DNA of 64,000 nt from Candidatus Uhrbacteria bacterium. Lineage in GTDB: Bacteria > Patescibacteriota > Patescibacteriia > UBA9934 > GWF2-40-263. Each line of letters opens with the position of its first letter. Positions within the stretch are counted from its first letter, which is position 1. The stretch covers positions 6,978 through 70,977 of the forward strand of contig JAERTI010000056.1 in the NCBI GenBank assembly GCA_016844925.1, written 5' to 3'. The position numbers were made by a program, and so were the translations under genes. The notes beneath the pieces were generated by a model. The model made no database searches. It was given only the letters and a program-made list of their open reading frames with translations, and was not told the origin of the DNA. This document shows, in pieces, positions 1-52,175 of the stretch.

Positions 1-1710
1 GCGGAGTACGTCGAGAGCTGGAACAGCGGGATCAACGAGGAGATCTCTCTGCTCGTCAGCGCTCCGGACCCCGTCGAGCTCTTCGGTGTGGTGACATCGA
101 ACTACCGCGTGTCCGTGCAGGATTCCGAGGTGCTGTTCGGCCGCAAGGATGTGTGGGACCCGGCCTGGGTGGCCTACGGCCCCACCGATCACCTGATCGA
201 TGAGGTTCCGTCCCCCATGGAGGCCGAGCGCCTCGAGGCTGCTGACCAGAAGTGGCCGGCAGCGCAGATCTACGCCGCACACGGCGACTACGTGAGTGCG
301 AACCGCTGCGCCCAGAAGCTCTTCGACGAGGGGAGCTACAAGGTGGCGGCCATGACGGCCGTGCTCACCGGCGACACGGAGATGATGACCAAGGCCACGA
401 CCGTCATGGTCGAAGCGCGGTACATCACCAAGACCTTCGACGTCATCCGCTACGCCATCGAGCAAGGCAGGCCCCAGGCGGCGCGGCACATCGTCGACGC
501 CCACGGGTTCGACCTGCTGGAGGTGACCGACGAGTACGCCGTGCGCCAGCTCGCCATCGCGGGCGATGGGTCGCTCCTGCCCCCGTTCATCGAGGCCAAC
601 CTCGAGAGCTGGGAGGCGGGCGGAGACCTGTCGCACCCGCACGGCGCTGAGACCATCGTGGCGGACATCGCCATGCTGGGACGGACGGACAAGGAAGCGG
701 CTCGCGGCTACGCGGCTCGCTATCTGCGTCTGGAGCACGCCAACGTGCTGATCTGGGTTCACTGCGGGGAAGGCTGCTACGCCTCGCCCATGCAGGGGAC
801 GATCGAGCTCTACGAGCTTATCAAGCACGACTCGGAGCTCAAGCAGCTCTACATCGACCGAACGCGGAAGTTCGTGGACGAGGCCTGGCCTGTTCCCGCT
901 CTGGACGAGTACGGTGAGGTCGAGAACCTGCCCGCGCAGGTTATTGCCGGTGAGCACGTGGGGAACATGTACGGCGGCTGGAGCACGGGCATGTGGGGTG
1001 GTGACGACATCTACTACGAAACCTCCCTTCTCTACACGCTCCTGATGAACGTTCATCAGAGTGGCGACGCGGACCTGATCCGACTGTGGACCGAGCTGCT
1101 CACCAGCTTCGGTCAGCGATCGGTGGCGGGGTTCGAGGACTCCACTCTCGCCTTCGAGCGGGAGATGGGTCGCGGGATCCTGGGACAGCCGGTCAACACC
1201 GACGCCCCGGACCTGACGCTCATCGAGCGCTACCTGCTCTCGAACATGCTTGGCAGGCCTGCCCCGGACCTCTCTGGTCTGTGGCAGGAGCTCGAGGATC
1301 CGACGAGCCGTACGCACTCCGACACCATGCATTCCCTGCAGTGGATGGTCAGCATGCTGCTGAAGGGGAGGGTCAACGACTCGGCCCGGACGCAGATCGT
1401 GGATCGCTACAGCCTGAACCTCGCCGAGGATGATTCCGGTGAGGGACGGATTAGCAGTCTGTTCCAGGTGGCGCTGAAGTCCAAGTACGGCAAGTCCTAC
1501 TCCTTGGAGGCGGACCTCGACCGACCCTGGCGTGCTGTGCGCACCAACCAGAGCGCGCTGGACCAGCGGGCGGCGATGGATCTGCCGCAGATCGACCTGT
1601 ACCCGGCCAGCGCCGAGCAGGCTCAGGAGATCCTGGCGCCGCACCTGCAGCGCCTCCAGACGGAGCTGCCCGTGCACTACGCGCGGTACATGGCTAGCCG
1701 CGGCGAGTAG
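1..1710 (+). CDS. hypothetical protein, 5' end outside window; very high GC (GC3-rich)
   Basis: ORF track 88..1710. The in-frame codons 1-87 contain no stop, so the ORF enters the window already open. No recognisable catalytic motif. Confidence 0.6.
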   Translation, partial: AEYVESWNSGINEEISLLVSAPDPVELFGVVTSNYRVSVQDSEVLFGRKDVWDPAWVAYGPTDHLIDEVPSPMEAERLEAADQKWPAAQIYAAHGDYVSANRCAQKLFDEGSYKVAAMTAVLTGDTEMMTKATTVMVEARYITKTFDVIRYAIEQGRPQAARHIVDAHGFDLLEVTDEYAVRQLAIAGDGSLLPPFIEANLESWEAGGDLSHPHGAETIVADIAMLGRTDKEAARGYAARYLRLEHANVLIWVHCGEGCYASPMQGTIELYELIKHDSELKQLYIDRTRKFVDEAWPVPALDEYGEVENLPAQVIAGEHVGNMYGGWSTGMWGGDDIYYETSLLYTLLMNVHQSGDADLIRLWTELLTSFGQRSVAGFEDSTLAFEREMGRGILGQPVNTDAPDLTLIERYLLSNMLGRPAPDLSGLWQELEDPTSRTHSDTMHSLQWMVSMLLKGRVNDSARTQIVDRYSLNLAEDDSGEGRISSLFQVALKSKYGKSYSLEADLDRPWRAVRTNQSALDQRAAMDLPQIDLYPASAEQAQEILAPHLQRLQTELPVHYARYMASRGE

Positions 1711-3705: not shown

Positions 3706-4045
3706 AGTGCTCCACGGAACTAATTTGGGCAAACAATTGGCTTAAGGCTTAGAACCGGTTCACCTTGGTGGACCATGAGAGCCTCGCGGTTATCCCCTCG
3801 GGGAGAAGTTATTCAGAACGTCGTATCGGCCCACAAGCTGAACTGATCGTATCTGAGGCGCGCTGTGCTGCGGCACAGGGCCCGACTAGAACCAGCCAAA
3901 TGTAGGGTCGTGGAGTAACAAAAAGCTCCAAAATGAGCGATATTTCAACTCAGTTCTGTGCGCACTCGGTCAACGACCATTTAAGGTCGTCTCCCTCGTG
4001 TGCTCGAACTTCATTGAAATCTCATCTCATTTTGGAGCTTTTTGA
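3706..4045 (+). ncRNA. candidate structured small RNA or palindromic element (class unknown) with its own promoter and a terminator-like 3' end
   Basis: TTGCGT-N18-TATAAT (perfect -10) at 3673-3711. A 19-bp inverted repeat at 3919-3937 / 4026-4044, extended by ATTTCAA/TTGAAAT and AGTTC/GAACT, encloses a roughly 88-nt interior and is followed by TTTTT. Internal CUGUGC-UGCG-GCACAG hairpin. No ORF of 60 aa or more in the region. Confidence 0.3.
3919..4044. repeat. long-range inverted repeat (19 bp arms, about 88 nt spacer) forming an extended imperfect hairpin
   Basis: ACAAAAAGCTCCAAAATGAG at 3918-3937 is the reverse complement of CTCATTTTGGAGCTTTTTG at 4026-4044. Confidence 0.7.
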
Positions 4046-9299: not shown

Positions 9300-9796
9300 T
9301 GCGTTTACCAACTCGTAAATCTCAGAAGCTTAAACTCCCTCAAGATGAGGGACCTTTGTATTTGACTAAGGCTGGCATTGAGAAACTTGAACGTCGTCTT
9401 GAGAGGATTGAAACAACAGAACTTCCGCAAGCTATTGAGGATGTTCGTCGTACGGGAGAGTTTGGTGATTTCTCTGAAAATGCGGAATATCAAGAGGCAA
9501 AAGGGAGGATGAGGCGTTTACATAATTCCGTCCTTGTGATAAAGGACAAGCTCAAACGAGCTGTTTTGATCGAAAAAGAAGAGGGGATGCAAGGGGTGCA
9601 GATTGGATCAGTGGTTGTTCTTGAGACTGGGGATGGACAACACAAGACATTTGAGATTGTTGGACCGAGTGAAACCGATCCAACGCGCGGACGCGTTTCG
9701 TATAAATCTCCATTGGGAGCGCGCTTGATAAACCGCGAAGTAGGAGAGTCAGTGGAGATCGGTTTAACAACATACGCCATCGTAGAGATACGCTGA
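9299..9796 (+). CDS. greA: transcription elongation factor GreA
   Basis: N-terminal coiled-coil (LTKAGIEKLERRLERIE, GDFSENAEYQEAKG) and C-terminal FKBP-like domain. TAATG overlap with rimK. Confidence 0.85.
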   Translation: MRLPTRKSQKLKLPQDEGPLYLTKAGIEKLERRLERIETTELPQAIEDVRRTGEFGDFSENAEYQEAKGRMRRLHNSVLVIKDKLKRAVLIEKEEGMQGVQIGSVVVLETGDGQHKTFEIVGPSETDPTRGRVSYKSPLGARLINREVGESVEIGLTTYAIVEIR

Positions 9797-13569: not shown

Positions 13570-14793
13570 TTGGCCGTTATGAAATATGTATCTCTAATCT
13601 TGTTCGTGCTCCTACTTATGCCGGTGGCACTTGAAGCATCATCGATTGCTGAGCGTGTTGCGGGAAAGATTGTGTTGGATGTTGAGTCCAGTGGGGAGGC
13701 TTGGTATGTAGAGCCTGATAGTCAGGAACGGTATTTTCTTGATCGACCGGATGATGCGTTTGTCATTATGCGTGAGCTTGGTCTTGGAATTACAACGGTT
13801 GATTTGGAAAAGATTCCAAGTAGTGAAGAGTCTTCTGTGGGAGATTACGCGTTGAGGCAGCGGCTCTCTGGAAAAATTCTCTTGCAAGTGGAGTCCAGTG
13901 GAGAAGCTTGGTATGTCTATCCCGTTGATTTGAAGCGTTACTATCTTGGAAGGCCCGCGGATGCGTTTGCGATTATGTCGGAGCTTGGGCTGGGGATCTC
14001 ATCAAGCGACTTGAGTCAGATTTCTGTGGCAGGAGAGGAGGTTGAGTTATCGACAGGGTCAGATGGGTACGTCTATGTCTCTGAACGTATTTCGACAGAT
14101 CGTGGGAGTTTCTCTGCTCGGTATGTGAAGCTTGAGCAAGGGATGTTCACCATGGTGACGGACACCGCTGAGCTGAGTGACTGTGAGTCGGATTGTGATG
14201 CCAAGTATGTTGGTGAGTACGTTGAGGAGAATGGCGGACTGATTGGGATTCATGGGACATATTTTTGCCCGCCGGATTATGGAGAGTGCTCCAGTCGGGT
14301 GAATCAGTTTGATCCACCGGTGTATAACACGGCTGAGGGGGTGATGTTGAATGAGTTTGATCTTGTGCATCAAGGTGGGCCGATGATGGCCGTGGATGTT
14401 GAGGGAAACTATTATTACTATCATCGAGCGGGGGAGTTTGGTGATGGCGTTGAGGATTGGGAACGTGAGCATGGTGTAGAACTTCAGGCGGCCATTGCAC
14501 ATTACCCCTCTCTTGTAGAAGAAGGAGAGAATATTGTGGGCGCAGAGGTGTTACAGTCGTCAATGCATAGCTCAGCTACGCGTGCGGGAATCGGATATGA
14601 TGAGGATTACGTATATCTCGTTGTGGTGACGGAAGCGTCAGTTACTGATCTCGCCTCGGTGTTTGATGCATTGGGTGTCGATTATGCGATGAACCTGGAT
14701 GGGGGAGCGTCGACGGCATTGTATGTGGATGGAAGGTATACGTATGGACCGTCTCGTGAGAATCCGAATGCAATCGTTTTTGTAAGAAATTAG
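13570..14793 (+). CDS. secreted protein: signal peptide, two tandem roughly 60-aa repeats, and a C-terminal phosphodiester glycosidase (DUF2233/NAGPA-like) domain
   Basis: Signal peptide MKYVSLILFVLLLMPVALEA. Repeats GKI[VL]L[DQ]VESSGEAWYV...DAF[VA]IM[RS]ELGLGI occur twice. C-terminal MNLDGGASTALYVDG motif. Confidence 0.6.
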   Translation: MAVMKYVSLILFVLLLMPVALEASSIAERVAGKIVLDVESSGEAWYVEPDSQERYFLDRPDDAFVIMRELGLGITTVDLEKIPSSEESSVGDYALRQRLSGKILLQVESSGEAWYVYPVDLKRYYLGRPADAFAIMSELGLGISSSDLSQISVAGEEVELSTGSDGYVYVSERISTDRGSFSARYVKLEQGMFTMVTDTAELSDCESDCDAKYVGEYVEENGGLIGIHGTYFCPPDYGECSSRVNQFDPPVYNTAEGVMLNEFDLVHQGGPMMAVDVEGNYYYYHRAGEFGDGVEDWEREHGVELQAAIAHYPSLVEEGENIVGAEVLQSSMHSSATRAGIGYDEDYVYLVVVTEASVTDLASVFDALGVDYAMNLDGGASTALYVDGRYTYGPSRENPNAIVFVRN

Positions 14794-17920: not shown

Positions 17921-19276
17921 CTAGCTCGCGCGTTGGGAGCTGAGCAGCATGGTCTCCATGTTTCCTTCACGGAACTGGAGGCCGATCTTGTCCTGCATGT
18001 CCCTCACGATCTCTACCGCGTTGCCGAGGCAGAAGCTGGCGCCCGGGGAGGGGGCCAGGGTGAAGGCGATGGGGGCGTCCGTGGCGATCACGCGGTCGGC
18101 GTCCTTGCGAAGCTCTCCGCTGACCAGGTTCACGGGCTGTCCACGCACGCCACCGGCACCCTTGTCGAGGATGATGTCCTCGGGGCGCAGCGACGGGATG
18201 ACCTTGCGGGCGCGGCGCAGGAACGCGCGCTTGCCCACGTAGGGCCACTCGTAGAGCATGTTCTCCAGGGCGAACTTGGAGATGTCCCAGTCGGCCAGGA
18301 TCTTCATCAGGGCCAAGATGCCGCGGGGGCTCACGAGCCCCACGCGCAGGAACTCCCAGATGGTCGCGTAGTTGTGGCGCTCGAGCATCGGGAGTGGTCG
18401 GGCCGTAGGGCCGAACCGCGTCTCGTCCGGGTTGTAGACCGCAGGGTCGCCGTGGACGGCCGCGAACGGCAGCTTGGGCAGCTGCATGGTGTAGACCTTG
18501 CCCTCGAGCAGGCCACCTGAGCGCACGCTCCGGTAGAAGCTTCCCGCGACGGGGAGCAGAGCGTACTCTTTGTGGTAGCCCAGCGCGTGTGCGTGCAGCA
18601 GCGAGCCGGAGCCCGCGCAGACGCTGACGTAGCGTCCGGTGTGGGCAACTCCATCGGCGGTGCGCACGACGAATCCGTCACGGGACGGTTCGATGCGCTC
18701 GACTTCCAGGTTGTAGAGGACGTCGACGGTGACGCCGTTTCCGCTGGCCTCCTGCGCCAGTTCGATGAACTTGCACGCCAGCTGGTGGTAGTCCACCGCG
18801 CGTCCGTGCGGGGTGTAGAGCGAGACGATGTCCTGCTGAGGGTCACGTCCCTCCATCACCATGGGTTCGACCTTGGTGATGTCATCGGGGCCCAGAAGCC
18901 GGATGTCCGAGAAGTGTTTCCGGAACTCGTCGAAGCGAAGCTTGAGACGGTCGGTCTCGCCATCGACGGCGATGACCTGCTTCTGGATGACCATGGAGCC
19001 GTCGGGCAGGTGGCGGCGGCAGAACCCCTCCAGGAGGTCCGAACCCCACTTGACCCGCAGGGCGCGCTCGAGATCGTAGTTCGTCTCGATCTCGCCGCGG
19101 TGCAGCGTCTGGCTGTTGTTGGTCACGTTGGAGTTGACCTCGCCGGGCTTCTCTCTGCGTTCGATGACCAGGATCCGTTTGGCATCGGTGTGCAAGGCAA
19201 GGAGCCAGGCCTGAGCTGCTCCCGTCACGCCTGCGCCGATGATGATCGCGTCGTACATCTGTTCCTCCTTCGGCAT
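17921..19276 (-). CDS. FAD-dependent oxidoreductase, malate:quinone oxidoreductase (Mqo)-like; high-GC island gene
   Basis: N-terminal dinucleotide-binding YDAIIIGAGVTGAA. VIERREKPGEVNSNVTNNSQTLHRGEIETNYD resembles the Mqo/LhgO family. 451 aa. Plus-strand ORFs across it are shadows. Confidence 0.6.
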   Translation of the reverse strand: MPKEEQMYDAIIIGAGVTGAAQAWLLALHTDAKRILVIERREKPGEVNSNVTNNSQTLHRGEIETNYDLERALRVKWGSDLLEGFCRRHLPDGSMVIQKQVIAVDGETDRLKLRFDEFRKHFSDIRLLGPDDITKVEPMVMEGRDPQQDIVSLYTPHGRAVDYHQLACKFIELAQEASGNGVTVDVLYNLEVERIEPSRDGFVVRTADGVAHTGRYVSVCAGSGSLLHAHALGYHKEYALLPVAGSFYRSVRSGGLLEGKVYTMQLPKLPFAAVHGDPAVYNPDETRFGPTARPLPMLERHNYATIWEFLRVGLVSPRGILALMKILADWDISKFALENMLYEWPYVGKRAFLRRARKVIPSLRPEDIILDKGAGGVRGQPVNLVSGELRKDADRVIATDAPIAFTLAPSPGASFCLGNAVEIVRDMQDKIGLQFREGNMETMLLSSQRAS

Positions 19277-36944: not shown

Positions 36945-37973
36945 ATGAAATTTTTTATTGGTCTTTTACTCATTCTTATCGCGTCACCGGCAGCGCTTTG
37001 GTTTTCTGAATCACAGCATCGAGTTAAGGACGTGTCTTCTGCCACTGAGGTGGACGCCTCAACTCAGGCGCAGGGATATGTCGTGTTTGAAGGCGAGCCG
37101 GTGCTCTCTGACGCTCCAATGTGTCCTGGACTTGATCAGTCCTGTCTAGCCGTCTCAACAATCGAGGAACAGTATGTGGCAGTGGAGCTTGTGGAGTGTG
37201 GGGTGCTTGATCTAGATGAAGGAGATGTTCTTCTTGAGCAAGTAGAAGATCGATGTGATGCTGACACAGGAAGTTGCGATCCTTGTTATCAAATAGAGAG
37301 AAGAGGCTGGGAAGAGGTTTCCGATACAACCTCCTATGCTGGTCTCCGCGTTGGTGCCTATGAGGTAGCCCTCTCGAATCAGGTTCAGTTTGTTGGAGAC
37401 TTAACGTCTTTTGCCTACGTCACCGCTGAGGGTGAACAGATGTCTGCCCAGCCTGAGGAGGTTCTGGTTGGTGATGTGCGTTTTTCCTATGACTTTTTCC
37501 CTTTGAGTGATTCGTTACTTGTTGTGGGAGAGGCTCAGGGGGGAGTGGTCACTGATGAGGGGGAAAAGACATTTGTTGTCTCATCATTAGGCTATGAGGC
37601 AACCGTGGCGGAATTGGATGCGCGAGATGAGGCGTCTAAGTGGGGGCTACGTGTTCTTTCACTGCTTGTCATGGTCCTAGGCTTCCTTCTGGTCGCATCA
37701 CAGTTCCTTGCACCGATCACAGATCTCGCAAAGATCGCACCGTTCCTAGGATCGCATATCAGCGCATGGATGAGAGGTGTTCTGTACTTGGTCGTGGCCA
37801 TTGCCGCGTCGATGGTCTGGTCGATTATGCTGGCCACCGTCGTGCTGTTAAAGACATTCTGGCCAGCACTTCTTGTGCTTGCTGTGCTGATCGTATTTTT
37901 TGGCAGGCTCGCACCAGAGTCATTTATAAAAGATCTTCGACAGAAGATGAGGGGGGCATCGGGTAACAATTAA
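36945..37973 (+). CDS. membrane protein with an acidic Cys-containing extracytoplasmic domain and three C-terminal TM helices, unknown function
   Basis: Signal/anchor sequence, then a D/E-rich domain with CPGLDQSC and CDADTGSCDPC, and TM helices after residue 225. Confidence 0.5.
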   Translation: MKFFIGLLLILIASPAALWFSESQHRVKDVSSATEVDASTQAQGYVVFEGEPVLSDAPMCPGLDQSCLAVSTIEEQYVAVELVECGVLDLDEGDVLLEQVEDRCDADTGSCDPCYQIERRGWEEVSDTTSYAGLRVGAYEVALSNQVQFVGDLTSFAYVTAEGEQMSAQPEEVLVGDVRFSYDFFPLSDSLLVVGEAQGGVVTDEGEKTFVVSSLGYEATVAELDARDEASKWGLRVLSLLVMVLGFLLVASQFLAPITDLAKIAPFLGSHISAWMRGVLYLVVAIAASMVWSIMLATVVLLKTFWPALLVLAVLIVFFGRLAPESFIKDLRQKMRGASGNN

Positions 37974-42875: not shown

Positions 42876-42894
42876 TTAATACACGGATCAGAAT

Positions 42895-42927
42895 AAAAAA
42901 CGACTAGTTTGATACTAGTCGTTTTTG
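42895..42927. terminator. bidirectional intrinsic terminator
   Basis: AAAAACGACTAGT-ttgat-ACTAGTCGTTTTTG. Confidence 0.75.
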
Positions 42928-42972
42928 TTGGGAGAATACTTAAATAGGTCCTTATTTTATGTCGTGAAAAAA

Positions 42973-43614
42973 TTATTGGTTATCGTTGAAATACATGGCG
43001 TCATTCGTCTCTTTCCAGACGGGGAACTTTTCCATGATGCGCGTGAATAGGGGACTCGCTATGTTCGTGTTGAGCCATGTGCGTAGATGGGTATATTCGG
43101 ATTGGTTAAACCAATCCTTGTTCACATGCGCAAATTGCCTGATGAATGGGAAGATCGCTGCGTCTGTGAATGAGAATGCCTGGCCTGAGAGATGGGCTTG
43201 CTGAGAAAGTTGTTCCTCTAATTTTTGCAAAAACACCTCCCCGCGAGCTCTGTAGACTTCCTCTGGTTCAGGGTGTCTTTGTGCGTACTTATAACAATCA
43301 AGATTCTTCTTGAAATCCCCATCATTTTCTGTGATCAATTCCTCATCTTTTGTTGCAAGCCATGACTCCGGGTCACTCTTAGATAAGGCCCAATCCATGA
43401 TGTCCAAACTTTCATCAATCACCTTGCCGTCAGGTAGTATCAAGACCGGCACAGTCCCTTTTGGGCTTGCTTCAAGCATCGATGCCGGTTTATCTCTCAA
43501 TAGAATCTCACGCAGTTCCACTCGCATGCCACTTGCCGCAATGGCGAGTCGTGCCCGCATCGCATATGGACACCGACGAAATGAATAGAGGATTGGGTGC
43601 GTAGTCGTATTCAT
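42973..43614 (-). CDS. glutathione S-transferase family protein
   Basis: Thioredoxin-like N-terminal domain with SFRRCPYAMRARLA and TVPVL, and a helical C-terminal domain. Start taken at the ATG (MNTTTHP); the ORF-track start is TTG. Confidence 0.65.
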   Translation of the reverse strand: MNTTTHPILYSFRRCPYAMRARLAIAASGMRVELREILLRDKPASMLEASPKGTVPVLILPDGKVIDESLDIMDWALSKSDPESWLATKDEELITENDGDFKKNLDCYKYAQRHPEPEEVYRARGEVFLQKLEEQLSQQAHLSGQAFSFTDAAIFPFIRQFAHVNKDWFNQSEYTHLRTWLNTNIASPLFTRIMEKFPVWKETNDAMYFNDNQ

Positions 43615-43651
43615 AATGTAGACGCGTTTCAAAATTGCAAAGATGGTCGAG

Positions 43652-43673
43652 TTGAAGCTGATGATGATTCAGT
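43652..43673 (+). repeat. direct-repeat copy A (TTGAAGCTGATGATGATTCAGT), 3' of the MutS-HNH gene
   Basis: Matches 46769-46791 at 20 of 22 positions. Confidence 0.6.
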
Positions 43674-43685
43674 ATCAGCATTGAA

Positions 43686-46649
43686 TCAGTTATCAACGTC
43701 GAGCTCTAGTCCGGTACTCGTCATTTTGAACCCTTTAATCTCAATCTCTCCCGCGTGTACTTTTTTGTGGCAAGCGTTGCACAATGGCACAAGGTTGTAT
43801 TTGTGATCCTTGTGAAAGTGTTTAATGTAGCCATGCTCATTAGCGTTTTTTTGAGGAGCGATATGATGAATCTCCGAGACGGTATCACGACAGAGGCCAC
43901 AGCTCGTAGCGTAGAGATCCTTATTGTAGTTATTGCTTTGTTTTTTGGTGAGCAATGTTAAATCGTCTTCCTCTTGCGCGATTTGCTGACGAATCTTCGC
44001 TGCTAAGGCGAGGAATTTTTTGTCCATGTGTAACGATTCGGCAAACTCTAAACCATACACACTGCTCCCACTGCCTGTTTGCAATGTTCGGTCAAAAATC
44101 AATTTATCTGCTTTCTCATCATAATGAACATGTAAATGAACACTTACTACTTGCGGCAGTGCCTGTAACAAATCAATTCTTTGCAGTTGGTGTAAGTGGG
44201 TGGTGAACATGAATAACGCACCGATTTCTGAAAGACGTTGAATCGTTGCACTGACGATCGCAAGGGCAGAGAGCGTTTCTGTCCCACGACTTATTTCATC
44301 GCCGAGAATGAGACTTCGTGCCGTAGAGCGATTGAAAATGTTTTTCATTTCCATCATTTCCACCGCAAAAGAAGAAAGCCCCTTTTCAAAATTGTCTCTT
44401 GCAATAATGCGAGTAAACAGCTCTTGGAACAGCGTAAATCTCATTTGCTTGGCCGGAACAAAGAAACCACTTTGAGCCAAAATGATACACACACCCAAAC
44501 TTTTCATGAGCGAAGATTTTCCGCTCGAGTTTATTCCGTACAATAGAACGCCACGCGTGTCTTCGTCGGTCATCTTGGCCATGGTGGATGAAGATGTTGA
44601 CGCATCTTGCAACGACTTATCACCCATCACGACGTCGTTGGGAACATAAATCCCGTTTTCTTCGCGGGCTTCTACGAGAGGATGTCGGACATCCAATAAT
44701 TCCAAATAGGACGTTTCTTCAGGGCTGGTAAGAATTTGCGGGCGAACGAGATTATGAATCAAAGAAGCTTTGATATTAGAAAGTGCCACATCAATTTTTC
44801 CAATCGTTGTGATGAGAGTATTCATCAGATCACAATAGTTTGCATCAAGCTGCTCTAATTCACTGCGGAAGAGATTACGAACTAACGCGGAGATTTGTTT
44901 GTTCAAGAGCGAAATTTTCTCAGAAATTTCTCTGATGATTTCCGCCGTGATTTTTACATTGCCGGTTTGAATCTTTACGGTGAAATCACTCAGTGCATAC
45001 ACGGTGCCGTCAATTGATACATAGCTATCAGACAACGCCTGCTCAATTAAAAAGTACCTACTTTTTGTGATCGAAATATGATGTCCATCTTTCTCGAGAT
45101 GTTTAATCACAACATAATCACGTTCTGGCTTACCCGTTTGTTGTTCAATCAAATGAACAAATGCCGTCCGAATGGTTTCTAATTTTTCCTGAAGTTCATT
45201 TTTTTGTTTGATTAAACGATCGATCTCGTCGTTAAATCCGGCTTGAAAGAAACTTTGACTGATTTCACCTTGTGCGTACTTGCTCGTTTCATCCAAATTG
45301 AAAATGGTTTCTAAATGGAGAACAGCTTTTTCTAGGAGAGGTTGTTGCTCAACGAGTTCTGGGACAACGGATGAGCTTTCAATGCTGCTCAGGTGCTTTA
45401 AGATGCTCTGACTCGCAACCAAGGAATCATAAAGAAAATTGATTTCAAATGGATGCAGACGCGTAAGCTGAATGCGGCGTTTTAGGCGGTCAATATCATA
45501 GATATGCTTTAACTCCTCATCAATGTCCGCATAGATATAAATGAGCGCATCAGAGAGATCATAACGAGCCTCCAGTTCCGTTTGGTCAATGATTGGATTC
45601 GTGATTCGTTCCTTGAACAGGCGACGACCAAAACTGGTACGCGTGTTGTCAAGAAAACTGAGCACCGTCTGCTCGTTTGGATTAGGGGAAATGATGTTGA
45701 GTTGTTCGAGTGGATTGTTTCCTAGATACAGGAAGTTTTTGTCATTGATTTGTTGTGGTGCGGTAATGTTTTTCACCACCTCACGGTCATGCTCAATAAT
45801 AAACTCAAGCAAGATGGCCAACGCCTCAGATGCTAAGGGCTTTTTCTCTAAGTTTAAAAATTCAATCGATGATAAAAACGACTTTATGTCATAGCATTGT
45901 TTAAACAATTCGTTTTGATAGCCAATGGGCAAACGCTTGTTGTCCGTATGAACATTCAACTGTTCTGATAACTCTAAATACTGTCGAACGGTTTCTGGAA
46001 CGACATCTTGGCCTCCACACGTGAGCAGGACTTCATTCGGGTCATGCGATTTAAGCAGCGAAAAAAGCTGGTCTAACGCATACGTAGGGTCTTCCTGGGT
46101 ACTGTGAATTTCAAAAACGGACGTTCTCCCAGTGGTCACATCAATGGATGCGTAACCGACCGAGTAATTGTCTTTATGTTTCTCTACGATTAAAGACGTG
46201 GTGAAATTGTCATCGTTGTTGAGACTGTATTCAAAGTTGACTCCAGGAGACAAAATGTTGTCCAGATAACGCGTGACGTTTGGTGGTACACCCTGCTGTT
46301 TGATAATGACAATGGTGTACTTGTTCTCACGGATAAGTTTTTGCACATAGCGATCAAACGTCGCCGTAGGAAAACCAGCCATGAGTGGGTTCTTAACATT
46401 GTTTTCCAGAATGTTTTTGTTTTTTCGCGTCAACTGAATGTTTAAAATTTCAGCAATCTCTTTTGTTTTACCAATCTGCTTCGTTGCATTATCAACCCCG
46501 TAGATTTCAAAAAAAGATCCGACTTCCATCAGTACGACTGTGTCAGTTCCATACTTTTCTTCGAACAGCTCTTGTAGCTGTAAATAGATGGCGATCAATG
46601 ACTGATTTGTATCGTCAAGTAGCTCTTGAACACGTGCATGTATACCCAT
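43686..46649 (-). CDS. MutS-family protein fused to a C-terminal HNH endonuclease (MutS7-like architecture)
   Basis: N-terminal mismatch-binding domain (LMEVGSFFEIYGVDA), a domain V ABC ATPase (Walker A GINSSGKSS, signature SSFAVEM, Walker B LILGDEISRGT, then TTHLH), and a C-terminal HNH (CGLCRD...HHIAPQ...N...CNACHKKVH). Low GC relative to flanking host genes. Confidence 0.85.
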   Translation of the reverse strand: MGIHARVQELLDDTNQSLIAIYLQLQELFEEKYGTDTVVLMEVGSFFEIYGVDNATKQIGKTKEIAEILNIQLTRKNKNILENNVKNPLMAGFPTATFDRYVQKLIRENKYTIVIIKQQGVPPNVTRYLDNILSPGVNFEYSLNNDDNFTTSLIVEKHKDNYSVGYASIDVTTGRTSVFEIHSTQEDPTYALDQLFSLLKSHDPNEVLLTCGGQDVVPETVRQYLELSEQLNVHTDNKRLPIGYQNELFKQCYDIKSFLSSIEFLNLEKKPLASEALAILLEFIIEHDREVVKNITAPQQINDKNFLYLGNNPLEQLNIISPNPNEQTVLSFLDNTRTSFGRRLFKERITNPIIDQTELEARYDLSDALIYIYADIDEELKHIYDIDRLKRRIQLTRLHPFEINFLYDSLVASQSILKHLSSIESSSVVPELVEQQPLLEKAVLHLETIFNLDETSKYAQGEISQSFFQAGFNDEIDRLIKQKNELQEKLETIRTAFVHLIEQQTGKPERDYVVIKHLEKDGHHISITKSRYFLIEQALSDSYVSIDGTVYALSDFTVKIQTGNVKITAEIIREISEKISLLNKQISALVRNLFRSELEQLDANYCDLMNTLITTIGKIDVALSNIKASLIHNLVRPQILTSPEETSYLELLDVRHPLVEAREENGIYVPNDVVMGDKSLQDASTSSSTMAKMTDEDTRGVLLYGINSSGKSSLMKSLGVCIILAQSGFFVPAKQMRFTLFQELFTRIIARDNFEKGLSSFAVEMMEMKNIFNRSTARSLILGDEISRGTETLSALAIVSATIQRLSEIGALFMFTTHLHQLQRIDLLQALPQVVSVHLHVHYDEKADKLIFDRTLQTGSGSSVYGLEFAESLHMDKKFLALAAKIRQQIAQEEDDLTLLTKKQSNNYNKDLYATSCGLCRDTVSEIHHIAPQKNANEHGYIKHFHKDHKYNLVPLCNACHKKVHAGEIEIKGFKMTSTGLELDVDN

Positions 46650-46693
46650 AACGCCCTACATTTTAGCAACTCTCGCAATAAAATCTAGTAAGA

Positions 46694-46723
46694 CAAAAAA
46701 CCACCATTGCTGGTGATTTTTTC
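46694..46723. terminator. bidirectional intrinsic terminator, separating the upstream minus-strand operon from the MutS-HNH promoter region
   Basis: AAAAAACCACCA-ttgc-TGGTGATTTTTT. Confidence 0.7.
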
Positions 46724-46768
46724 TTGGCTCCCGCTACTGGACGCATTCAGAACAGCGAAATGGTCAGA

Positions 46769-46791
46769 TTTGAAGCCGATGATGGTTCAGT
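46769..46791 (+). repeat. direct-repeat copy B (TTGAAGCCGATGATGGTTCAGT), 5' of the MutS-HNH gene
   Basis: Matches 43652-43673 at 20 of 22 positions. Confidence 0.6.
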
Positions 46792-46800
46792 TTGTTTGAG

Positions 46801-47190
46801 CTACTTTTTGAATCTTTCGACTCGTGTTGAATAGTCAGCATAATCGAAGGTCACTACTGCAATCCAAAACAAGAACAATGCCAATCGAAAGACAAGAACA
46901 TTTCCGACCATCAATACGAGCAGTACATCCAATGTAATAAAGAGCATTCCGATCACAATCATTGAAAAGAACGTTGTAACATGACCCCAGATGAGGGCAT
47001 TTTTTGTTTCGGCATTCTTGTAACTGTAAATGAAGTTTGATGTGATGGGGGCTATGACGATCAGTCCAACAAAAAGAAGTAAGGTATCCAATCTTTCAAC
47101 TGGCATTCGAGCAACTTCGTGTTGCGTGAGTATGTAGAAAGGAATAAGCACCACATGTATTAGAATGTTTTTTGAGACAATCGATTTCAT
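46801..47190 (-). CDS. membrane protein (4 TM), unknown; in the AT-rich element
   Basis: Hydrophobic helices; no motif. Confidence 0.45.
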   Translation of the reverse strand: MKSIVSKNILIHVVLIPFYILTQHEVARMPVERLDTLLLFVGLIVIAPITSNFIYSYKNAETKNALIWGHVTTFFSMIVIGMLFITLDVLLVLMVGNVLVFRLALFLFWIAVVTFDYADYSTRVERFKK

Positions 47191-47205
47191 AAAAGTTTGT
47201 ATTTG

Positions 47206-47415
47206 TTACTTGTTTTTTGGAGTATACGTAATCATTTCCTTTCCGTAATACTCATTCACGGCAGCGGCGGCGGCAACTTTGAGCTGCTCCAGCTCTTTCT
47301 GTGAACTCAAAGGTTCATTGTTCATCATTTTTTCGATCAAAAGAGAGTTCAATTTTGTTTGAAATTGAAGTTCAATGATCGTTTTTCCAATGTCGATGTC
47401 TCCGATTTTGATCAT
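47206..47415 (-). CDS. small hypothetical protein
   Basis: 69-aa ORF, 1 nt from the upstream gene. Confidence 0.35.
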   Translation of the reverse strand: MIKIGDIDIGKTIIELQFQTKLNSLLIEKMMNNEPLSSQKELEQLKVAAAAAVNEYYGKEMITYTPKNK

Positions 47416-47416
47416 A

Positions 47417-47746
47417 CTATCTTGTATTTACCTCCTGTCGCAGGCTTTCGTTTTCTTCCTGCAAAATCCGAATCTGCTCCAAGAGCGAGGAATAGGCTTC
47501 TCCACGGTCATTCAACAACTCTTCAATCACTTGATCATTTGAAGAAACTTCACCTTTTGTCTCGTATACGATCTTACCAAGGTCAATCATCTCGGTAAGC
47601 ACGAAAACAAACGCAGCAACAACAAAAGCTACCAAAATGTAGCTCATAGTATTTTGTTGGATTTGTTGTGCGTGGTATTTGATCCTGTCCGTAATGGTCA
47701 GATCGCCACCCGTTTCGATTTTCAGTTTTTCATCGGGCATACTCAT
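47417..47746 (-). CDS. single-TM coiled-coil protein, unknown
   Basis: TM segment MSYILVAFVVAAFVFVL followed by a coiled-coil tail. Confidence 0.4.
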   Translation of the reverse strand: MSMPDEKLKIETGGDLTITDRIKYHAQQIQQNTMSYILVAFVVAAFVFVLTEMIDLGKIVYETKGEVSSNDQVIEELLNDRGEAYSSLLEQIRILQEENESLRQEVNTR

Positions 47747-47832
47747 TACAATTTTGTCACATCACTTGAATGCGTAAAGTATAGCAAAATAGCAGTTTTT
47801 TCGGTAGTATTACCGTAAATTGACCCAAAGAT

Positions 47833-48966
47833 GTGATCAAAACTGTAACAGACAGCCTGCAACGACAATACGATACGTTCATCGATGAGCCAGATGACTG
47901 GTTTTTCTTTTTGGGCTTGGCCGAGTACATGCAGTATTTGCGTACAACCGAGCTGACAATCCCGCTCATCGAAGGCGTTGAAGAGCAAATGCACCAATTT
48001 GACGATGAGTTCAAGCAGATCCATGCAGCCGTTGAAAAAGAAGCCAAACGAGCTTTTGAGGTCATTCAGGGGCGTATAGCAAAAGCAGGGATCGAAGATG
48101 AAATCATTGAGCGTGAAACAAACGAGTATCACGGTTTTCTTGACGGCACATGGAGCAGCACCGCAAGCCTTGGGCAAAGCCTCTATCGAAACGTGCGAAA
48201 CATCGTGGAAAGACTGCGAAAACTGGATAGAGATGATCTGGTCAAGGAATACTTTGTTCCGTTTGTTCCTGATCCAAAGTTGACTGAAATCTACACAATT
48301 ACACCAAGCCGTGACCGACTTGATGACCTTGAAAAGAAACAAGAGCAATCAAAGAAAACGCAGATTTGGGGTAGCTATTGGCACTTGGAACGTGCCAGAT
48401 GGGCAATCATGGACGGGTTGGACTACATGAACAGGCAGAAAGGAACCTTGCGTGGATCATTGAACCGCATCAATGCGAGTCCTCTGATCCGTGAAATGGC
48501 CGCCATGGAACGACGAGATCCAAATCCGCAACTGCAACGGTTCATCAAAAGAGATTACCTATTTCATGCTCGACGGTTTCACACGTTTGTTTTGAATACT
48601 CTCGCCAAGGTTCCAAAGTATTTGCTCGATGATCAGGAAAACAAAGATGCTGGTAGTGTTCAGCTTGCATACAGCGACGGCACAATCCACATCAGGGGAC
48701 AGTCACTCAGAATTACAAAGCGGCAGCATTCACTCCAAAATCGTCTCATGTTGAAGCTGTTTAGCGATCTGTATGTAAAGTGGGATTTTGAGGATGTTTT
48801 TGATGACCTGTACGAAGAGTCCCGTGGTAAAGATGATTGGAAAAAGCTGTACAAATTGATTGATGCCGTAAACGACAAAGTAGCCGTTGAATCAGATGCC
48901 AAGGAATTGATCCGCAAGAATCGTTACGAGATTTGGATTGATCCTGACTACCTGCCACCGAAGTAG
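47833..48966 (+). CDS. hypothetical protein (377 aa) in the element; possible C-terminal winged-helix domain
   Basis: Long ORF with no motif. The antisense 200-aa ORF is treated as a shadow. Confidence 0.45.
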   Translation: MIKTVTDSLQRQYDTFIDEPDDWFFFLGLAEYMQYLRTTELTIPLIEGVEEQMHQFDDEFKQIHAAVEKEAKRAFEVIQGRIAKAGIEDEIIERETNEYHGFLDGTWSSTASLGQSLYRNVRNIVERLRKLDRDDLVKEYFVPFVPDPKLTEIYTITPSRDRLDDLEKKQEQSKKTQIWGSYWHLERARWAIMDGLDYMNRQKGTLRGSLNRINASPLIREMAAMERRDPNPQLQRFIKRDYLFHARRFHTFVLNTLAKVPKYLLDDQENKDAGSVQLAYSDGTIHIRGQSLRITKRQHSLQNRLMLKLFSDLYVKWDFEDVFDDLYEESRGKDDWKKLYKLIDAVNDKVAVESDAKELIRKNRYEIWIDPDYLPPK

Positions 48967-49149
48967 TCCCAAAAGTCCTACAACATTTCAGAACCTCCAT
49001 TTGAGTATCGTGCCTCTGTAAAGATTCACGGTACTTTTTTGTGTCTGACGACGTAGTAATAAAACAAGAACGAATACCCGTCGATCCGAAGGTCGTCGAG
49101 TTCTTTGCGCTGCTCAACGAACTCGGACAAAAGTACGCTCCCGAACTCT

Positions 49150-49413
49150 ATGAAAATCAAGGACATTCAGATCATCCCAATCAGACCTCGTGATGGACTT
49201 GTCGGCTTTGCCAACGTCACGCTCGAAGACGGCCTCCATCTTGGCTCTATCGGCATTCACAAACGACTGGATGGTAGCGGTTACCGTATCACGTATCCAA
49301 CGAAGAAAGTCGGATCAGTAGATACACATATCTACCACCCAACAACGACGCAAACAAGCAGATTGATCGAGCAAGCCGTTACGCAAAGAGCAGAAGAGTT
49401 GTTCGACCTGTAA
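49150..49413 (+). CDS. spoVG: SpoVG-family protein
   Basis: MKIKDIQIIPIRPRDGLVGFANVTLEDGLHLGSIGIHKRLDGSGYRITYPTKK follows the SpoVG pattern (M.ITDVR....G..KA.A.ITLD..F.V.DI.V.....GLFV.MPS.K). Start at the internal ATG. Confidence 0.6.
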   Translation: MKIKDIQIIPIRPRDGLVGFANVTLEDGLHLGSIGIHKRLDGSGYRITYPTKKVGSVDTHIYHPTTTQTSRLIEQAVTQRAEELFDL

Positions 49414-49445
49414 CGGCAAATCAAAGATGTAACAAAGACGTAACT

Positions 49446-50600
49446 ATGATTGACACCGTTGTAATTATGCTTGACAAAGGCCACTACTTCATCACAGATC
49501 CGCAACGCTTTTCGCCCGCCCTGATGGTTCGAGATGAAGAAAACATTCCCTATACAAAGCATGTAAACAATCCAACAAAGCGGCAGAAAGAGGATGTCTA
49601 CTATCCTCGACTGACTTTGCACTATCGCTCATATGGAAAGAAGTTCGAGCAACCTCTCGCTATTGAGTTTTCTGTACCAAAACTACTGTATGGCAACAAC
49701 CTCGATGAGCTTGAAGATTCAGATTTCAAAACGATTGTCAGCACCCTCAAACGTCGCTGCGATGAGATGGGAGTCAAAATCTGGGTCGGATCGCTCGACA
49801 ACGCACACGTTTCAACAATCCATTTTGGAAAAAACATTGAGTTGAAAGACGGCTATACCAGCACGCTTGCGATTCAAGAAATTGCCAAGCTGCACGGCTC
49901 AACACAGCAAGACCACAACAAGGCGGACTTTCGCAACGAAGGTCATGCGTACCAGATCTACACAAAGAACAGATCAATCGTTCTGTACGACAAAATGGCT
50001 GACATCAACAAGCCTGTCAGCCGAGCCATCGACAAGGACAAGGTAGCTGCCCAGCTTTCACTCTTCGATGTTCTCAAAGAACAAAACAAGCCACCTGAAA
50101 TCCTGCGTATCGAAGTCCGATACACCAACCGACGACTTCTCAAAACCGAGCTTTCAAGGCTCGGCATCAACGTGGAGCTGACATTCCAACAGCTTTTCAG
50201 CAAAGTGATCGCCCAGAAGGTCTTGCAATCACATTGGGAGCGTATCTATGACAAGCGAGTACATTTCGCTCTTTCGATGGAACGTAGGCCGCAAGCTGTT
50301 CTCAAACAGCTTCTACTCACGCACCCAGACATGAAACCGAAACGTGCCATTGAATTGGTTGGCATGTACGTCTTGGCACGTGACAATGCTGGACTGCTTG
50401 GCGTGCGTACAGCTGTGCAATCACTTCGACCAAAAACAAATTGGCATCGCTTCAAAAAGCAGCTCGAAGCATTTGAAGACCCACCGTTTCCGCTTGTTGT
50501 TCACGGCTTCGTGAATGACATCAAAACACAGCTCAAAGACTTCAAATCGCTTCGGTATTCAGTTGCTGTCGATGCCGATGTGCGACATAATCAATCATAA
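49446..50600 (+). CDS. putative replication initiation protein (Rep_trans-like rolling-circle initiator)
   Basis: 384 aa with HAYQIYTKNRSIVLYDK and EILRIEVRY motifs resembling the Rep_trans family. Lies upstream of the recombinase. Assignment is tentative. Confidence 0.35.
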   Translation: MIDTVVIMLDKGHYFITDPQRFSPALMVRDEENIPYTKHVNNPTKRQKEDVYYPRLTLHYRSYGKKFEQPLAIEFSVPKLLYGNNLDELEDSDFKTIVSTLKRRCDEMGVKIWVGSLDNAHVSTIHFGKNIELKDGYTSTLAIQEIAKLHGSTQQDHNKADFRNEGHAYQIYTKNRSIVLYDKMADINKPVSRAIDKDKVAAQLSLFDVLKEQNKPPEILRIEVRYTNRRLLKTELSRLGINVELTFQQLFSKVIAQKVLQSHWERIYDKRVHFALSMERRPQAVLKQLLLTHPDMKPKRAIELVGMYVLARDNAGLLGVRTAVQSLRPKTNWHRFKKQLEAFEDPPFPLVVHGFVNDIKTQLKDFKSLRYSVAVDADVRHNQS

Positions 50601-50612
50601 GAACGTCATACT

Positions 50613-52175
50613 ATGCGTGGAATCATTCTTGCCAGAGTCTCAACCGACGAACAAATGCAAACAGGGCAATCAATCCCTGCTCAACTTGAACGTGCAAGAC
50701 TCTACTCAAACAAAAAATCACTCATCGTTGCAGATGACGACGAGTACCAGTTCGACGAATCATCGCTACTGGATCATCGAAAGAAGTTCGAGGCTGTTCT
50801 CGACAAGATTCGTGCATCCAAAGAACCGATAGCCTTGGTCGTCGAAACTGTTGATCGCTTGCAACGCAGTTTCAAGGAATCCGTTGAACTGGATGCGCTT
50901 CGTAAATCAGGAAAGCTCGAAATCCACTTCATCCGTGAAAACCTTGTCATCCACAAGGATTCAACGGGATCAGAGATTCAACGATGGGATCTTGCCGTAT
51001 TTACGGCCAAGTCCTACGTGTTGAGTATTAGCGACAACGTGAAGCGAACTTTTGAACGAAAGATCCGTGACGGGCAATGGCTCGGCATGGCCTACATCGG
51101 CTACCTCAACGAACGAAGCGATGACGACAAAGAAGGTTTGATCGTACCCGACCCAGAACGTGCCATGTTCATCGTACGAGCCTACGAGCTATACGCAACT
51201 GGCCTTGAATCGCTTGCCAGCGTCCGTGAGAAGCTCATAGATGCAGGTTTCCGCACTCGAAAGGGCAACAAGCCTTCCAAGAGTCAGATTGAACGTATCC
51301 TCAAAAACAAGTTCTACTACGGCATCATGACTGTGAAGGGCAAAGAATACCCACACAAGTACCAGCCGCTCATCTCAAAGGGTTTGTTCGACAAAGTTCA
51401 AGATGTTTTTGCTGGCAAGACCAGTCGACCAAACAAAGTGCTGACCTCTGACAGGTTCATCTTCAAAGGTCTCATTCGCTGCGGTCATCCTGATTGTGGT
51501 TGTACGGTCACGCACGAGCGAAAGAAAAAGAAATACAACATGTACAGCTGCACGAACTCAAAGAAAGTTCATGAAGGACGGAAGTACATCAACGAAGAAG
51601 ATTTCTTGACGCAAATCTACGGCGTATTTGAGGCTCTGACGCTTTCTGACGAGCAAGTCGAGGAAATCACCGAAGAGATCAAGAAATCGCAAGCAGCGAA
51701 GAATCTGTATCACACGAATGCTTTGAAGGGCTTGCGTGAAAAATACGACAGCTACCAAGGCAAGATCGACCGTCTTCTCGACTTATTTGTTGATGGGAGT
51801 ATTACTAAGGCGGATCATGACAGAAAGTTGAAACAGTACAAAGAAGAACAGTATGACATTGAGCGTCAGATCACCGACCACACACAGGCAGACGAAAACT
51901 TCTATTTGTCCGCAACCCAGCTACTAAACGTTGCTCGTCACGCTCGTGTGATCTTTGAGCGTTCGGAACCACAAGAAAAACGCCAACTTCTCAATTTTGT
52001 ATTTCAGAACTTCGTTTTGAACGATCGTGAATTGGTTTACGAAGTCAGAAGTCCAATGAAATCAATCATTTCCTGCAAGGAAGCAGCGTCACACAAACAT
52101 AAAACGACCAGCGTTTCTGCTGATCGTCCTATGTGGCTCGGGGGGAGGGATTCGAACCCTCGACCCATTGGTTAA
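50613..52175 (+). CDS. large serine recombinase/integrase
   Basis: N-terminal resolvase domain with catalytic Ser in GIILARVSTDEQ, a recombinase domain, a zinc ribbon (CGHPDCGC...YSCTNS) and a coiled coil. The last roughly 14 codons (GGRDSNPRPIG) are read from the antisense of the tRNA-Asn 3' half. Confidence 0.85.
   Translation: MRGIILARVSTDEQMQTGQSIPAQLERARLYSNKKSLIVADDDEYQFDESSLLDHRKKFEAVLDKIRASKEPIALVVETVDRLQRSFKESVELDALRKSGKLEIHFIRENLVIHKDSTGSEIQRWDLAVFTAKSYVLSISDNVKRTFERKIRDGQWLGMAYIGYLNERSDDDKEGLIVPDPERAMFIVRAYELYATGLESLASVREKLIDAGFRTRKGNKPSKSQIERILKNKFYYGIMTVKGKEYPHKYQPLISKGLFDKVQDVFAGKTSRPNKVLTSDRFIFKGLIRCGHPDCGCTVTHERKKKKYNMYSCTNSKKVHEGRKYINEEDFLTQIYGVFEALTLSDEQVEEITEEIKKSQAAKNLYHTNALKGLREKYDSYQGKIDRLLDLFVDGSITKADHDRKLKQYKEEQYDIERQITDHTQADENFYLSATQLLNVARHARVIFERSEPQEKRQLLNFVFQNFVLNDRELVYEVRSPMKSIISCKEAASHKHKTTSVSADRPMWLGGRDSNPRPIG

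Follow-up and report, generated by a model that had tools for sequence, protein, structure and literature searches.

Does the gene for a MutS protein with its own nuclease, found on contig JAERTI010000056.1, travel with the mobile DNA beside it, or does it belong to the chromosome that carries it? The stretch analysed here (hereafter the window; positions are in its numbering unless another locus is named) is 64,000 nucleotides (nt) long and contains a 987-codon open reading frame (ORF) of the MutS7 family, which lies between two copies of a short repeat and near genes for a serine recombinase and a Rep-like protein. The original prediction placed this gene on an AT-rich insertion bracketed by a 22-nt direct repeat and took it for a mobile or defence-related MutS-nuclease module. 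That specific claim does not hold. With a probability of roughly 70%, MutS7 is a long-resident, strongly constrained chromosomal gene that is not on an insertion and encodes a MutS7-family mismatch sensor with an HNH nuclease, and the 5.4-kb element at a nearby tRNA-Asn gene (46725-52133) is separate from it. The comparison turns on the following features.

42973 to 43632, minus strand: glutathione S-transferase (GST) gene, directly downstream of MutS7 (Pfam GST_N and GST_C; likely ATG at 43614 by comparison with contig L088)
43621 to 43673, minus strand: R-left, a partial, degenerate copy of a repeat (R) in the MutS7-GST spacer, without the terminal ...CAGTAGCGGGAGCCA; holds the downstream 22-mer and matches a hidden Markov model (HMM) of R
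43686 to 46649, minus strand: MutS7-family gene, 987 amino acids (aa), ATG start (ORF and domain searches)
46650 to 46695, minus strand: MutS7 5' leader with a promoter-like region (CTAGATTTTATTG..TTGCTAAAAT..GGCGTTATG), recognised by conservation, the promoter being putative
46696 to 46724, minus strand: hairpin and T-run (46702-46715) just past the element junction, resembling the sequence after tRNA-Asn in L088
46725 to 46793, minus strand: R-right, a full 69-nt R at the likely far end of the element, ending ...GCGGGAGCCA; holds the upstream 22-mer and has copies in loci L107 and L105
46725 to 52133, no strand: strain-specific integrative element of ~5.4 kb at the tRNA-Asn 3' end, replaced in L088-L092, with a core shared with L107
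52134 to 52208, minus strand: tRNA-Asn (GTT), the integration target (ARAGORN; Rfam tRNA, 73.6 bits)

The protein P0121, a member of the same 90%-identity cluster as the window protein, is encoded on 15 contigs, five of which we fetched (L088-L092, hereafter the sister contigs). The window and the sister contigs share the gene order MetK, PRPP synthase, CDP-alcohol transferase, DUF2914, tRNA-Asn, a variable segment, MutS7, GST, M23 and, further on, DUF218 and Fib_succ. Using blastn, we found a single unbroken block of 93.8% identity with L088, running from 46699 to 42948 and covering MutS7, the spacer, and GST. This block shows no break at the downstream repeat; homology is gone from ~46700 to 52094, where all five sister contigs have an unrelated 2.6-kb segment in place of the window's 5.4-kb element. 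The sister contigs contain the downstream 22-mer with one mismatch, and the upstream copy is absent from them. The segment at 43.65-46.79 kb had been taken for the insertion; the sister contigs, examined for an empty site, all hold MutS7 (5 of 5) at the same position, joined to GST and accompanied by the downstream repeat only, which is the arrangement named in advance as contradicting an insertion. No flanking repeat was found around MutS7 in the seven other loci examined.

Sequence divergence was compared at two depths. Relative to the sister contigs, MutS7 has 96.6% aa identity and the flanking genes have 92-98%; at four-fold degenerate sites, identity within this species group is 0.82 for MutS7 and 0.48-0.82 for the flanks. 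Between genera, second codon positions of MutS7 are 96% identical at a four-fold site identity of 0.39-0.43; because the four-fold sites are near saturation, this conservation of second positions indicates strong purifying selection. On many Magasanikbacteria contigs, MutS7 forms part of a conserved block of RecQ, a fused MsrA-MsrB, MutS7, TsaD, and DnaE (L110, 4543-15586). In L007, too, MsrB is found just ahead of tRNA-Asn and MutS7, and this recurrence hints at an old synteny.

Ahead of the MutS7 start codon, ~42 nt are kept in six lineages (the window, L088, L006, L007, L093, and L094). Beyond these ~42 nt, the flanks are unrelated across genera, and DNA-level homology to other genera detected by blastn stops at 46689-46730. 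The leader contains an extended -10-like motif, TGCTAAAAT. As to the predicted promoter behind a terminator, the hairpin and T-run at 46702-46715 are present upstream and the leader is conserved; the promoter itself is a putative assignment.

The gene had also been described as markedly more AT-rich than GST and M23. This difference is real, but it mostly reflects amino-acid composition and does not point to foreign origin. The GC content of the MutS7 ORF is 41.8%, compared with 49.8% for the window, 46.8% for GST, and 49.3% for M23, and its GC content at third codon positions (GC3) is 0.45 versus a window mean of 0.53 +/- 0.10. These values place MutS7 1.4 standard deviations (GC) and 0.8 standard deviations (GC3) below the window mean, with the deficit mainly at codon positions 1 and 2. 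Native-looking genes at 25.9-29.7 kb have an AT content equal to or above that of MutS7.

The repeat is real. The 22-mers TTGAAGCTGATGATGATTCAGT (43652-43673) and TTGAAGCCGATGATGGTTCAGT (46770-46791) are identical at 20 of 22 positions, as originally predicted, although the upstream copy begins at 46770 and not at 46769. They lie 13 nt past the MutS7 stop codon and ~90 nt ahead of its start codon, and they form one of only two 22-mer pairs with two or fewer mismatches in the entire window. The similarity extends to ~53 nt (43621-43673 versus 46739-46791), and the longer pair has a local alignment score of 47 against a maximum of 26 in 300 shuffles; the repeat is therefore not due to chance. 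The other near-perfect repeat in the window (13684-13709 versus 13891-13916; 26 nt, 24/26 identical, 207 nt apart) lies within the ORF at 13570-14793 and is probably an internal protein repeat.

We identified four full copies of R: one in the window (46725-46793), two in the metagenome contig L105 (1548-1616 and 2315-2383), and one in L107 (168-236). All four are exactly 69 nt long (AAACTGA...GGAGCCA), and each lies a few bases past the stop codon of an ORF and is followed by a hairpin with a copy-specific stem. R-right is 82.6% identical to the far-end copy in L107 (over 46714-46804, repeat plus hairpin) and 82-90% identical to the two copies in L105, which bracket a serine-hydrolase gene. 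R-left matches an HMM built from the four full copies only (E 5e-4 in 1.47 Mb; model positions 3-54). It has the orientation of R-right, is without the junction end, and is present downstream of MutS7 throughout the species group. Partial R remnants also occur between tRNA-Asn and MutS7 in L088 (7765-7810) and L007 (9347-9375). We consider it likely that R-right is the conserved far end of the 5.4-kb element and that R-left is an older, partial R-like sequence.

Wider scans for R gave little more. When metagenome contigs were scanned for the 22-mer, 11 of 12 hits were chance matches and only L105 was informative; a scan of viral contigs for the 18-nt R core returned chance hits only. We rejected two candidate functions for R. 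As a structured RNA, its consensus fold reaches -2 kcal/mol with almost no covariation, and Rfam matches only the tRNA; as the end of a small plus-strand ORF (...AFRTAKWS[DE]LKPM...), it has stop codons just upstream and no start codon.

The element between R-right and tRNA-Asn contains the following genes.

46801 to 47746, minus strand: three small cargo ORFs (109, 69, and 129 aa) between the core and R-right (gene calls)
47833 to 48966, plus strand: core gene of 377 aa, DNA partly conserved with L107, no family match
49150 to 49413, plus strand: SpoVG-like core gene, 87 aa (PF04026 in gene calls of L001, weakly, and of L107)
49446 to 50600, plus strand: Rep-like protein, 384 aa (via homologues only)
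50613 to 52175, plus strand: large serine recombinase, 520 aa (Pfam Resolvase, Recombinase, and Zn_ribbon_recom; PHROG integrase, E 8e-67)

Rep and serine-recombinase genes had been named as neighbours of MutS7 and linked to it. The recombinase is confirmed, and Rep is supported through homologues only. One homologue of the 384-aa protein (P0293, 40% identity) passes the Pfam Phage_CRI cut-off (28.8 versus 21.7 bits), and another (P0330) is named “Replication initiation protein” in UniRef; the protein probably initiates rolling-circle replication. Searched directly against Pfam and PHROG, the 384-aa, 377-aa, and small ORFs gave no significant match. Both neighbours are part of an element that can be separated from MutS7 and is found elsewhere without it, which argues against the proposed link. 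The element core is found in the Uhrbacteria metagenome-assembled genome (MAG) GCA_018673485.1 (L107, 157-7096), with 79% DNA identity over 47745-52159. There the element adjoins tRNA-Gln and has its own R copy and other cargo (Vut_1, DUF2441, and a 421-aa ORF at the cargo position), and MutS7 is absent from the 15.5-kb locus fetched. In the window, the last 42 nt (14 codons) of the recombinase ORF are antisense to tRNA-Asn, with the stop codon in the anticodon loop; the 3' end of the recombinase ORF is likewise antisense to tRNA-Gln in L107-L109.

These loci suggest a family of compact Patescibacteria elements of 5.4-6.9 kb, with genes for a serine recombinase, a Rep-like protein, a SpoVG-like protein, and a ~370-aa protein plus variable cargo. 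With other tRNA-targeting serine-recombinase elements they share the Resolvase, Recombinase, and zinc-ribbon domains, insertion at a tRNA 3' end, presence or absence at a site, and a conserved core with variable cargo; they differ in their small size, their rolling-circle Rep-like and SpoVG-like genes, and their conserved 69-nt far end. We met no published description of the family, no literature search having been aimed at such elements. PADLOC gave no match for any element gene, and viral contigs scanned for relatives of the recombinase and the Rep-like protein held nothing related. Several hundred homologues of the Rep-like protein were found, many on contigs of 2-10 kb.

The DNA flanking R places the crossover. 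In L105, the first copy, R(a), is followed by GAGCCA, a hairpin, and ACCCAAGTGGG, and this flank matches the sequence after tRNA-Asn in L088 over 67 nt (score 94; shuffle maximum 22). We therefore take R to be the element arm of the distal junction, with the crossover at the ...GAGCCA 3' end of the tRNA, and the hairpins that follow R would then be native terminators of the various target tRNAs. The hairpin region of the window resembles the sequence after tRNA-Asn in L088 with a score of 26, which no shuffle reached. Judging from this resemblance, the hairpin at 46696-46724 is most likely the native tRNA-Asn terminator and predates the insertion; it follows that, before the element arrived, this strain had tRNA-Asn, the hairpin, and the promoter of MutS7 side by side.

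Other loci show the same site in use. In the window, L088, and L006, the last of which represents a different genus, a (G)GA(G/A)CCA|hairpin junction lies 83-91 nt before the MutS7 start codon, and tRNA-Asn lies upstream of MutS7 in the same orientation in L007, L088-L090, and L092. From this shared junction and the R remnants in L088 and L007, we conclude that tRNA-Asn was used repeatedly, with MutS7 on its host side. The history would run as follows: from an ancestral order of tRNA-Asn, hairpin, and MutS7, tRNA-Asn would have served as a hot spot for a family of serine-recombinase/Rep-like elements crossing over at ...GAGCCA tRNA 3' ends, and insertion of the 5.4-kb element (46725-52133) in this strain would have parted tRNA-Asn from MutS7. 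The circular form of the element would carry the attP junction R...GAGCCA|CATAGGACG. A tRNA-Asn 3'-half remnant that could serve as a second att site was not found inside the window. Upstream of MutS7, L006 contains a 41-nt tRNA-Asn 3'-half remnant (3995-4035) and a truncated tRNA-like fragment (~9420-9470), which look like the debris typical of an integration hot spot.

The protein was predicted to join a MutS core to a C-terminal HNH nuclease, and the domain searches agree. Domain positions are approximate.

~46239 to 46550, minus strand: MutS7 domain I
~45765 to 46202, minus strand: MutS7 domain II
~44778 to 45710, minus strand: MutS7 domain III with a clamp-like insert
~43980 to 44546, minus strand: MutS7 ATPase domain V
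~43752 to 43901, minus strand: MutS7 HNH

Pfam identified MutS_I (E 1e-10), MutS_II (E 6e-7; 30.3 bits versus a cut-off of 25), MutS_III (E 7e-22), and MutS_V (E 5e-43) in the 987-aa protein. HNH was weak in the whole-protein scan (E 0.013), and the C-terminal 95 aa alone passed its gathering score (21.8 versus 21.4 bits). Among homologue C-termini, HNH matched in 11 of 16 and the HNH-like DUF968 in 15 of 16, and four PHROG HNH families matched residues 900-975 (E 8.5e-5 to 5e-3). In an alignment of 21 sequences with identities down to 46%, F46 and E48 of the mismatch-binding Phe-X-Glu motif are invariant, as are the Walker A motif GINSSGKS, D784/E785, H818, and the HNH residues C917, C920, H928, H929, N952, C957, H961, and H965. 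AlphaFold produced a model with a mean predicted local distance difference test (pLDDT) score of 74.6, in which the MutS core is good and the HNH part is poor. Foldseek matched the model best to E. coli MutS (E 7e-41; ~890 aligned columns), and a beta-rich insert predicted between long helices (residues 513-568) resembles the MutS clamp. The PDB sequence search found no solved MutS7 and matched only MutS1, MSH, and MutS2 cores; profile matches of the HNH part to the IscB HNH in the PDB were not significant (E ~0.8).

The defining features of MutS7, as published for octocoral mitochondria, giant viruses, and Epsilonproteobacteria, are domains I, III, and V followed by an HNH nuclease at the C terminus (PMC3166940; PMC8438181; bioRxiv 10.1101/2024.07.17.603841). 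It has been described from Epsilonproteobacteria/Campylobacterota, Mimiviridae-type giant viruses, and octocoral mitochondria (Ogata 2011; Bilewitch & Degnan 2011, PMC3166940), and the mean length of the octocoral proteins is 987 aa (PMC8438181). A search of 5.8 billion proteins found 916 homologues of the window protein, and nearly all of the 120 listed have a length of ~985 aa and align over at least 99% of the query. The matches listed include a close group (82-89% identity), many Patescibacteria (Magasanikbacteria, Nomurabacteria, and Kerfeldbacteria; 50-57%), and Hydrogenimonas and Sulfurimonas (45-48%; Hydrogenimonas 47-48%), annotated as “HNH endonuclease / MutS-related protein.” In IMG/VR, relatives are encoded on 378 contigs, many labelled as giant-virus MAGs; the 80 retained are co-linear with the window protein at 32-35% identity (33-36% for giant-virus-type homologues), and six giant-virus-type homologues examined all have the same HNH motif and Phe-X-Glu (6/6). 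The NCBIfam MutS1 models were missed (369 versus 480 bits and 286 versus 642 bits), as was the MutS2 model TIGR01069 (107 versus 400 bits); domain I is present, an Smr match is absent, and identity to MutS1 and MSH structures is only 18-22%. The co-linearity with the HNH-MutS proteins of Campylobacterota and giant viruses therefore points to MutS7, an assignment made by full-length co-linear similarity and domain order. The expectation of a MutS7-like protein, and not MutS1 or MutS2, is upheld by these sub-cut-off scores, the HNH domain, and the co-linearity with recognised HNH-MutS proteins.

Recognised MutS7 proteins and the window protein share the order of domains I, III, and V, the HNH motif C-x2-C...HH...N...C/H-x2-H...H, and their length. 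Whereas recognised MutS7 is described without domains II and IV, the window protein has Pfam domain II and a modelled clamp-like insert; its gene is also a core chromosomal one with conserved synteny, not an obvious transfer, and its host belongs to the Patescibacteria. Canonical MutS1 (E. coli, Thermus aquaticus) shares the overall fold, the Phe-X-Glu motif, and the ABC ATPase motifs; however, identity is only 18-22%, and because the window protein has its own nuclease, a MutL/MutH partner is not implied. MutS2 also joins a MutS ATPase core to a C-terminal nuclease, but it is without domain I and uses Smr, whereas the window protein has domain I and HNH. Plant-type MSH1 embodies the same idea, pairing mismatch recognition with a nuclease tethered at the C terminus, and is likewise patchily distributed across life (bioRxiv 10.1101/2020.02.13.947598); its nuclease is GIY-YIG and not HNH, and it is a fusion of independent origin, set apart here by its description. 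The MutS7 literature that we found nowhere names Patescibacteria as hosts, and database records already annotate these Patescibacteria proteins as mismatch-repair proteins. The family is thus known, and this case adds to its range of hosts and makes its standing as a resident gene clearer.

From its sequence and surroundings, this MutS7 is most likely a self-contained housekeeping mismatch-repair enzyme. A MutS-type dimer would recognise a mismatch through the Phe-X-Glu motif of domain I, and ATP binding at domain V would turn the dimer into a sliding clamp. The tethered HNH would then nick one strand, replacing MutL/MutH, and helicase, exonuclease, polymerase, and ligase would finish the repair. 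The original prediction of a non-housekeeping, possibly defence-related gene is not supported, given the strong purifying selection, the lack of a PADLOC defence match for MutS7 (its only hit was a 13.7-bit P-loop match to AbiLi), and the RecQ/TsaD/DnaE neighbourhood in Magasanikbacteria.

Several other histories could leave a MutS7 gene between two copies of R. A chance match deserves practically no credence: ~0.25 pairs at 20/22 are expected by calculation in 64 kb, but the similarity reaches 53 nt at a score well beyond the shuffle maximum, both copies fit an independently built family model, and more copies exist in other genomes. We also think it very unlikely that MutS7 and its leader form a mobile cassette bounded by direct repeats, inserted upstream of GST and duplicating or recombining at R. 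Such a cassette would explain the highly non-random repeat so close to both ends of the gene, the restriction of DNA conservation between genera to the ORF plus 40-80 nt upstream, and the hydrolase gene that likewise lies between two R copies in L105; however, in the five sister contigs MutS7 occupies the same site, accompanied by R-left alone, R-right is part of an element found elsewhere without MutS7, the seven other MutS7 loci have no flanking repeat, and within the species group MutS7 has diverged as much as its flanks. Alternatively, MutS7 may have come on an earlier element of the same family at tRNA-Asn by tandem accretion, its core then being lost, R-left remaining as a scar, and the gene now being fixed. 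We regard this history as unlikely, although R-left is oriented as a distal junction with MutS7 on the element side, the arrangement of a cargo gene with an R remnant behind it is seen repeatedly (L088, 7765-7810; L007, 9347-9375; L105), the GC content of MutS7 is like that of element cargo genes, its synonymous divergence between genera is below that of other shared genes, and the family is patchily distributed across life. Against it, the DNA just past R-right is host-like, with a tRNA-type terminator, and not an element proximal end; the ...CCA|hairpin|MutS7 junction is common to another genus (L006) without R after MutS7; and MutS7 occurs across the whole clade and, in other Patescibacteria, in housekeeping surroundings. 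The broader proposal that small recombinase/Rep elements at tRNA 3' ends carry MutS7 as cargo, with R-left as the scar of an element that delivered or re-delivered it, seems rather improbable; if true, it would help to account for the scattered occurrence of MutS7 in Patescibacteria, Campylobacterota, and eventually giant viruses.

A different kind of alternative concerns the role of the protein: it would not repair replication errors but would act in anti-recombination, in defence, or as a selfish nuclease, sensing DNA in the manner of MutS and cutting foreign or heteroduplex molecules. The self-contained sensor-nuclease architecture and the adjoining integration hot spot would fit, and MutS2 is a precedent for MutS paralogues that act outside mismatch repair. 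This role is nevertheless quite unlikely: PADLOC finds no match, Phe-X-Glu is invariant, whereas MutS2 is without domain I, conservation is extreme, unlike that of fast-evolving defence genes, and MutS7 lies beside RecQ, TsaD, and DnaE in Magasanikbacteria. Several points do weigh against a long-resident repair gene or parts of that reading. The position of R-left downstream of MutS7, and its orientation, are what a MutS7 gene enclosed in an old element would lead one to expect, and our model does not account for them. In global alignments, MutS7 is 86-89% identical between genera and other shared proteins are 62-65% (63-67% by tblastn, with one match at 46%), and four-fold sites are less diverged in MutS7 (0.41 versus 0.31, z ~2.4); there may have been an older horizontal exchange of MutS7 between genera, a recent transfer being ruled out by the near-saturated four-fold sites (0.39-0.43 identical). 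Confidence in the modelled HNH part is low (pLDDT 45-70), and the repair role was judged from the protein and the locus. Because no MutS7 has, to our knowledge, been characterised biochemically, mismatch-dependent nicking and the choice of strand are inferred. Finally, the nearest reference genomes are labelled “uncultured Gammaproteobacteria” in their records.

We judged the Gammaproteobacteria label unreliable because the named neighbours of the window MetK, of MutS7, and of the Rep-like protein are all Patescibacteria. The Rep-like protein shares 81% identity with a protein from Candidatus Uhrbacteria, and on sequence similarity the host is most likely a Patescibacteria bacterium. Two records titled “uncultured Gammaproteobacteria,” L002 (CAYFMS010000002.1) and L005 (OZ246405.1, a 1.23-Mb chromosome), have MutS7 proteins whose named neighbours are all Patescibacteria, and their label looks wrong.

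MutS7 is the only MutS type able, in principle, to join mismatch recognition and strand incision in one polypeptide. In Patescibacteria it is a widespread, highly conserved, syntenic core gene, and one-protein repair would suit minimal genomes. These homologues enlarge the pool of bacterial MutS7 for expression and structural work and add a large clade to analyses of the origins of giant-virus and octocoral MutS7. The recombinase/Rep element family with its 69-nt end may be of separate interest for mobile DNA in uncultured bacteria.

Smaller differences between strains were also detected. A TMEM43-like gene (36945-37973) is present in the window and not in the sister strain L088, and a glyoxalase/bleomycin-resistance gene between GST and M23 is present in L088 and not in the window (42886-42947). 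Two ORFs elsewhere in the window (88-1710 and 17921-19276) have a GC3 of 0.88, compared with a genome mean of ~0.53; one of them encodes an FAD oxidoreductase similar to malate:quinone oxidoreductase, and both are candidates for recent acquisition from a high-GC donor.

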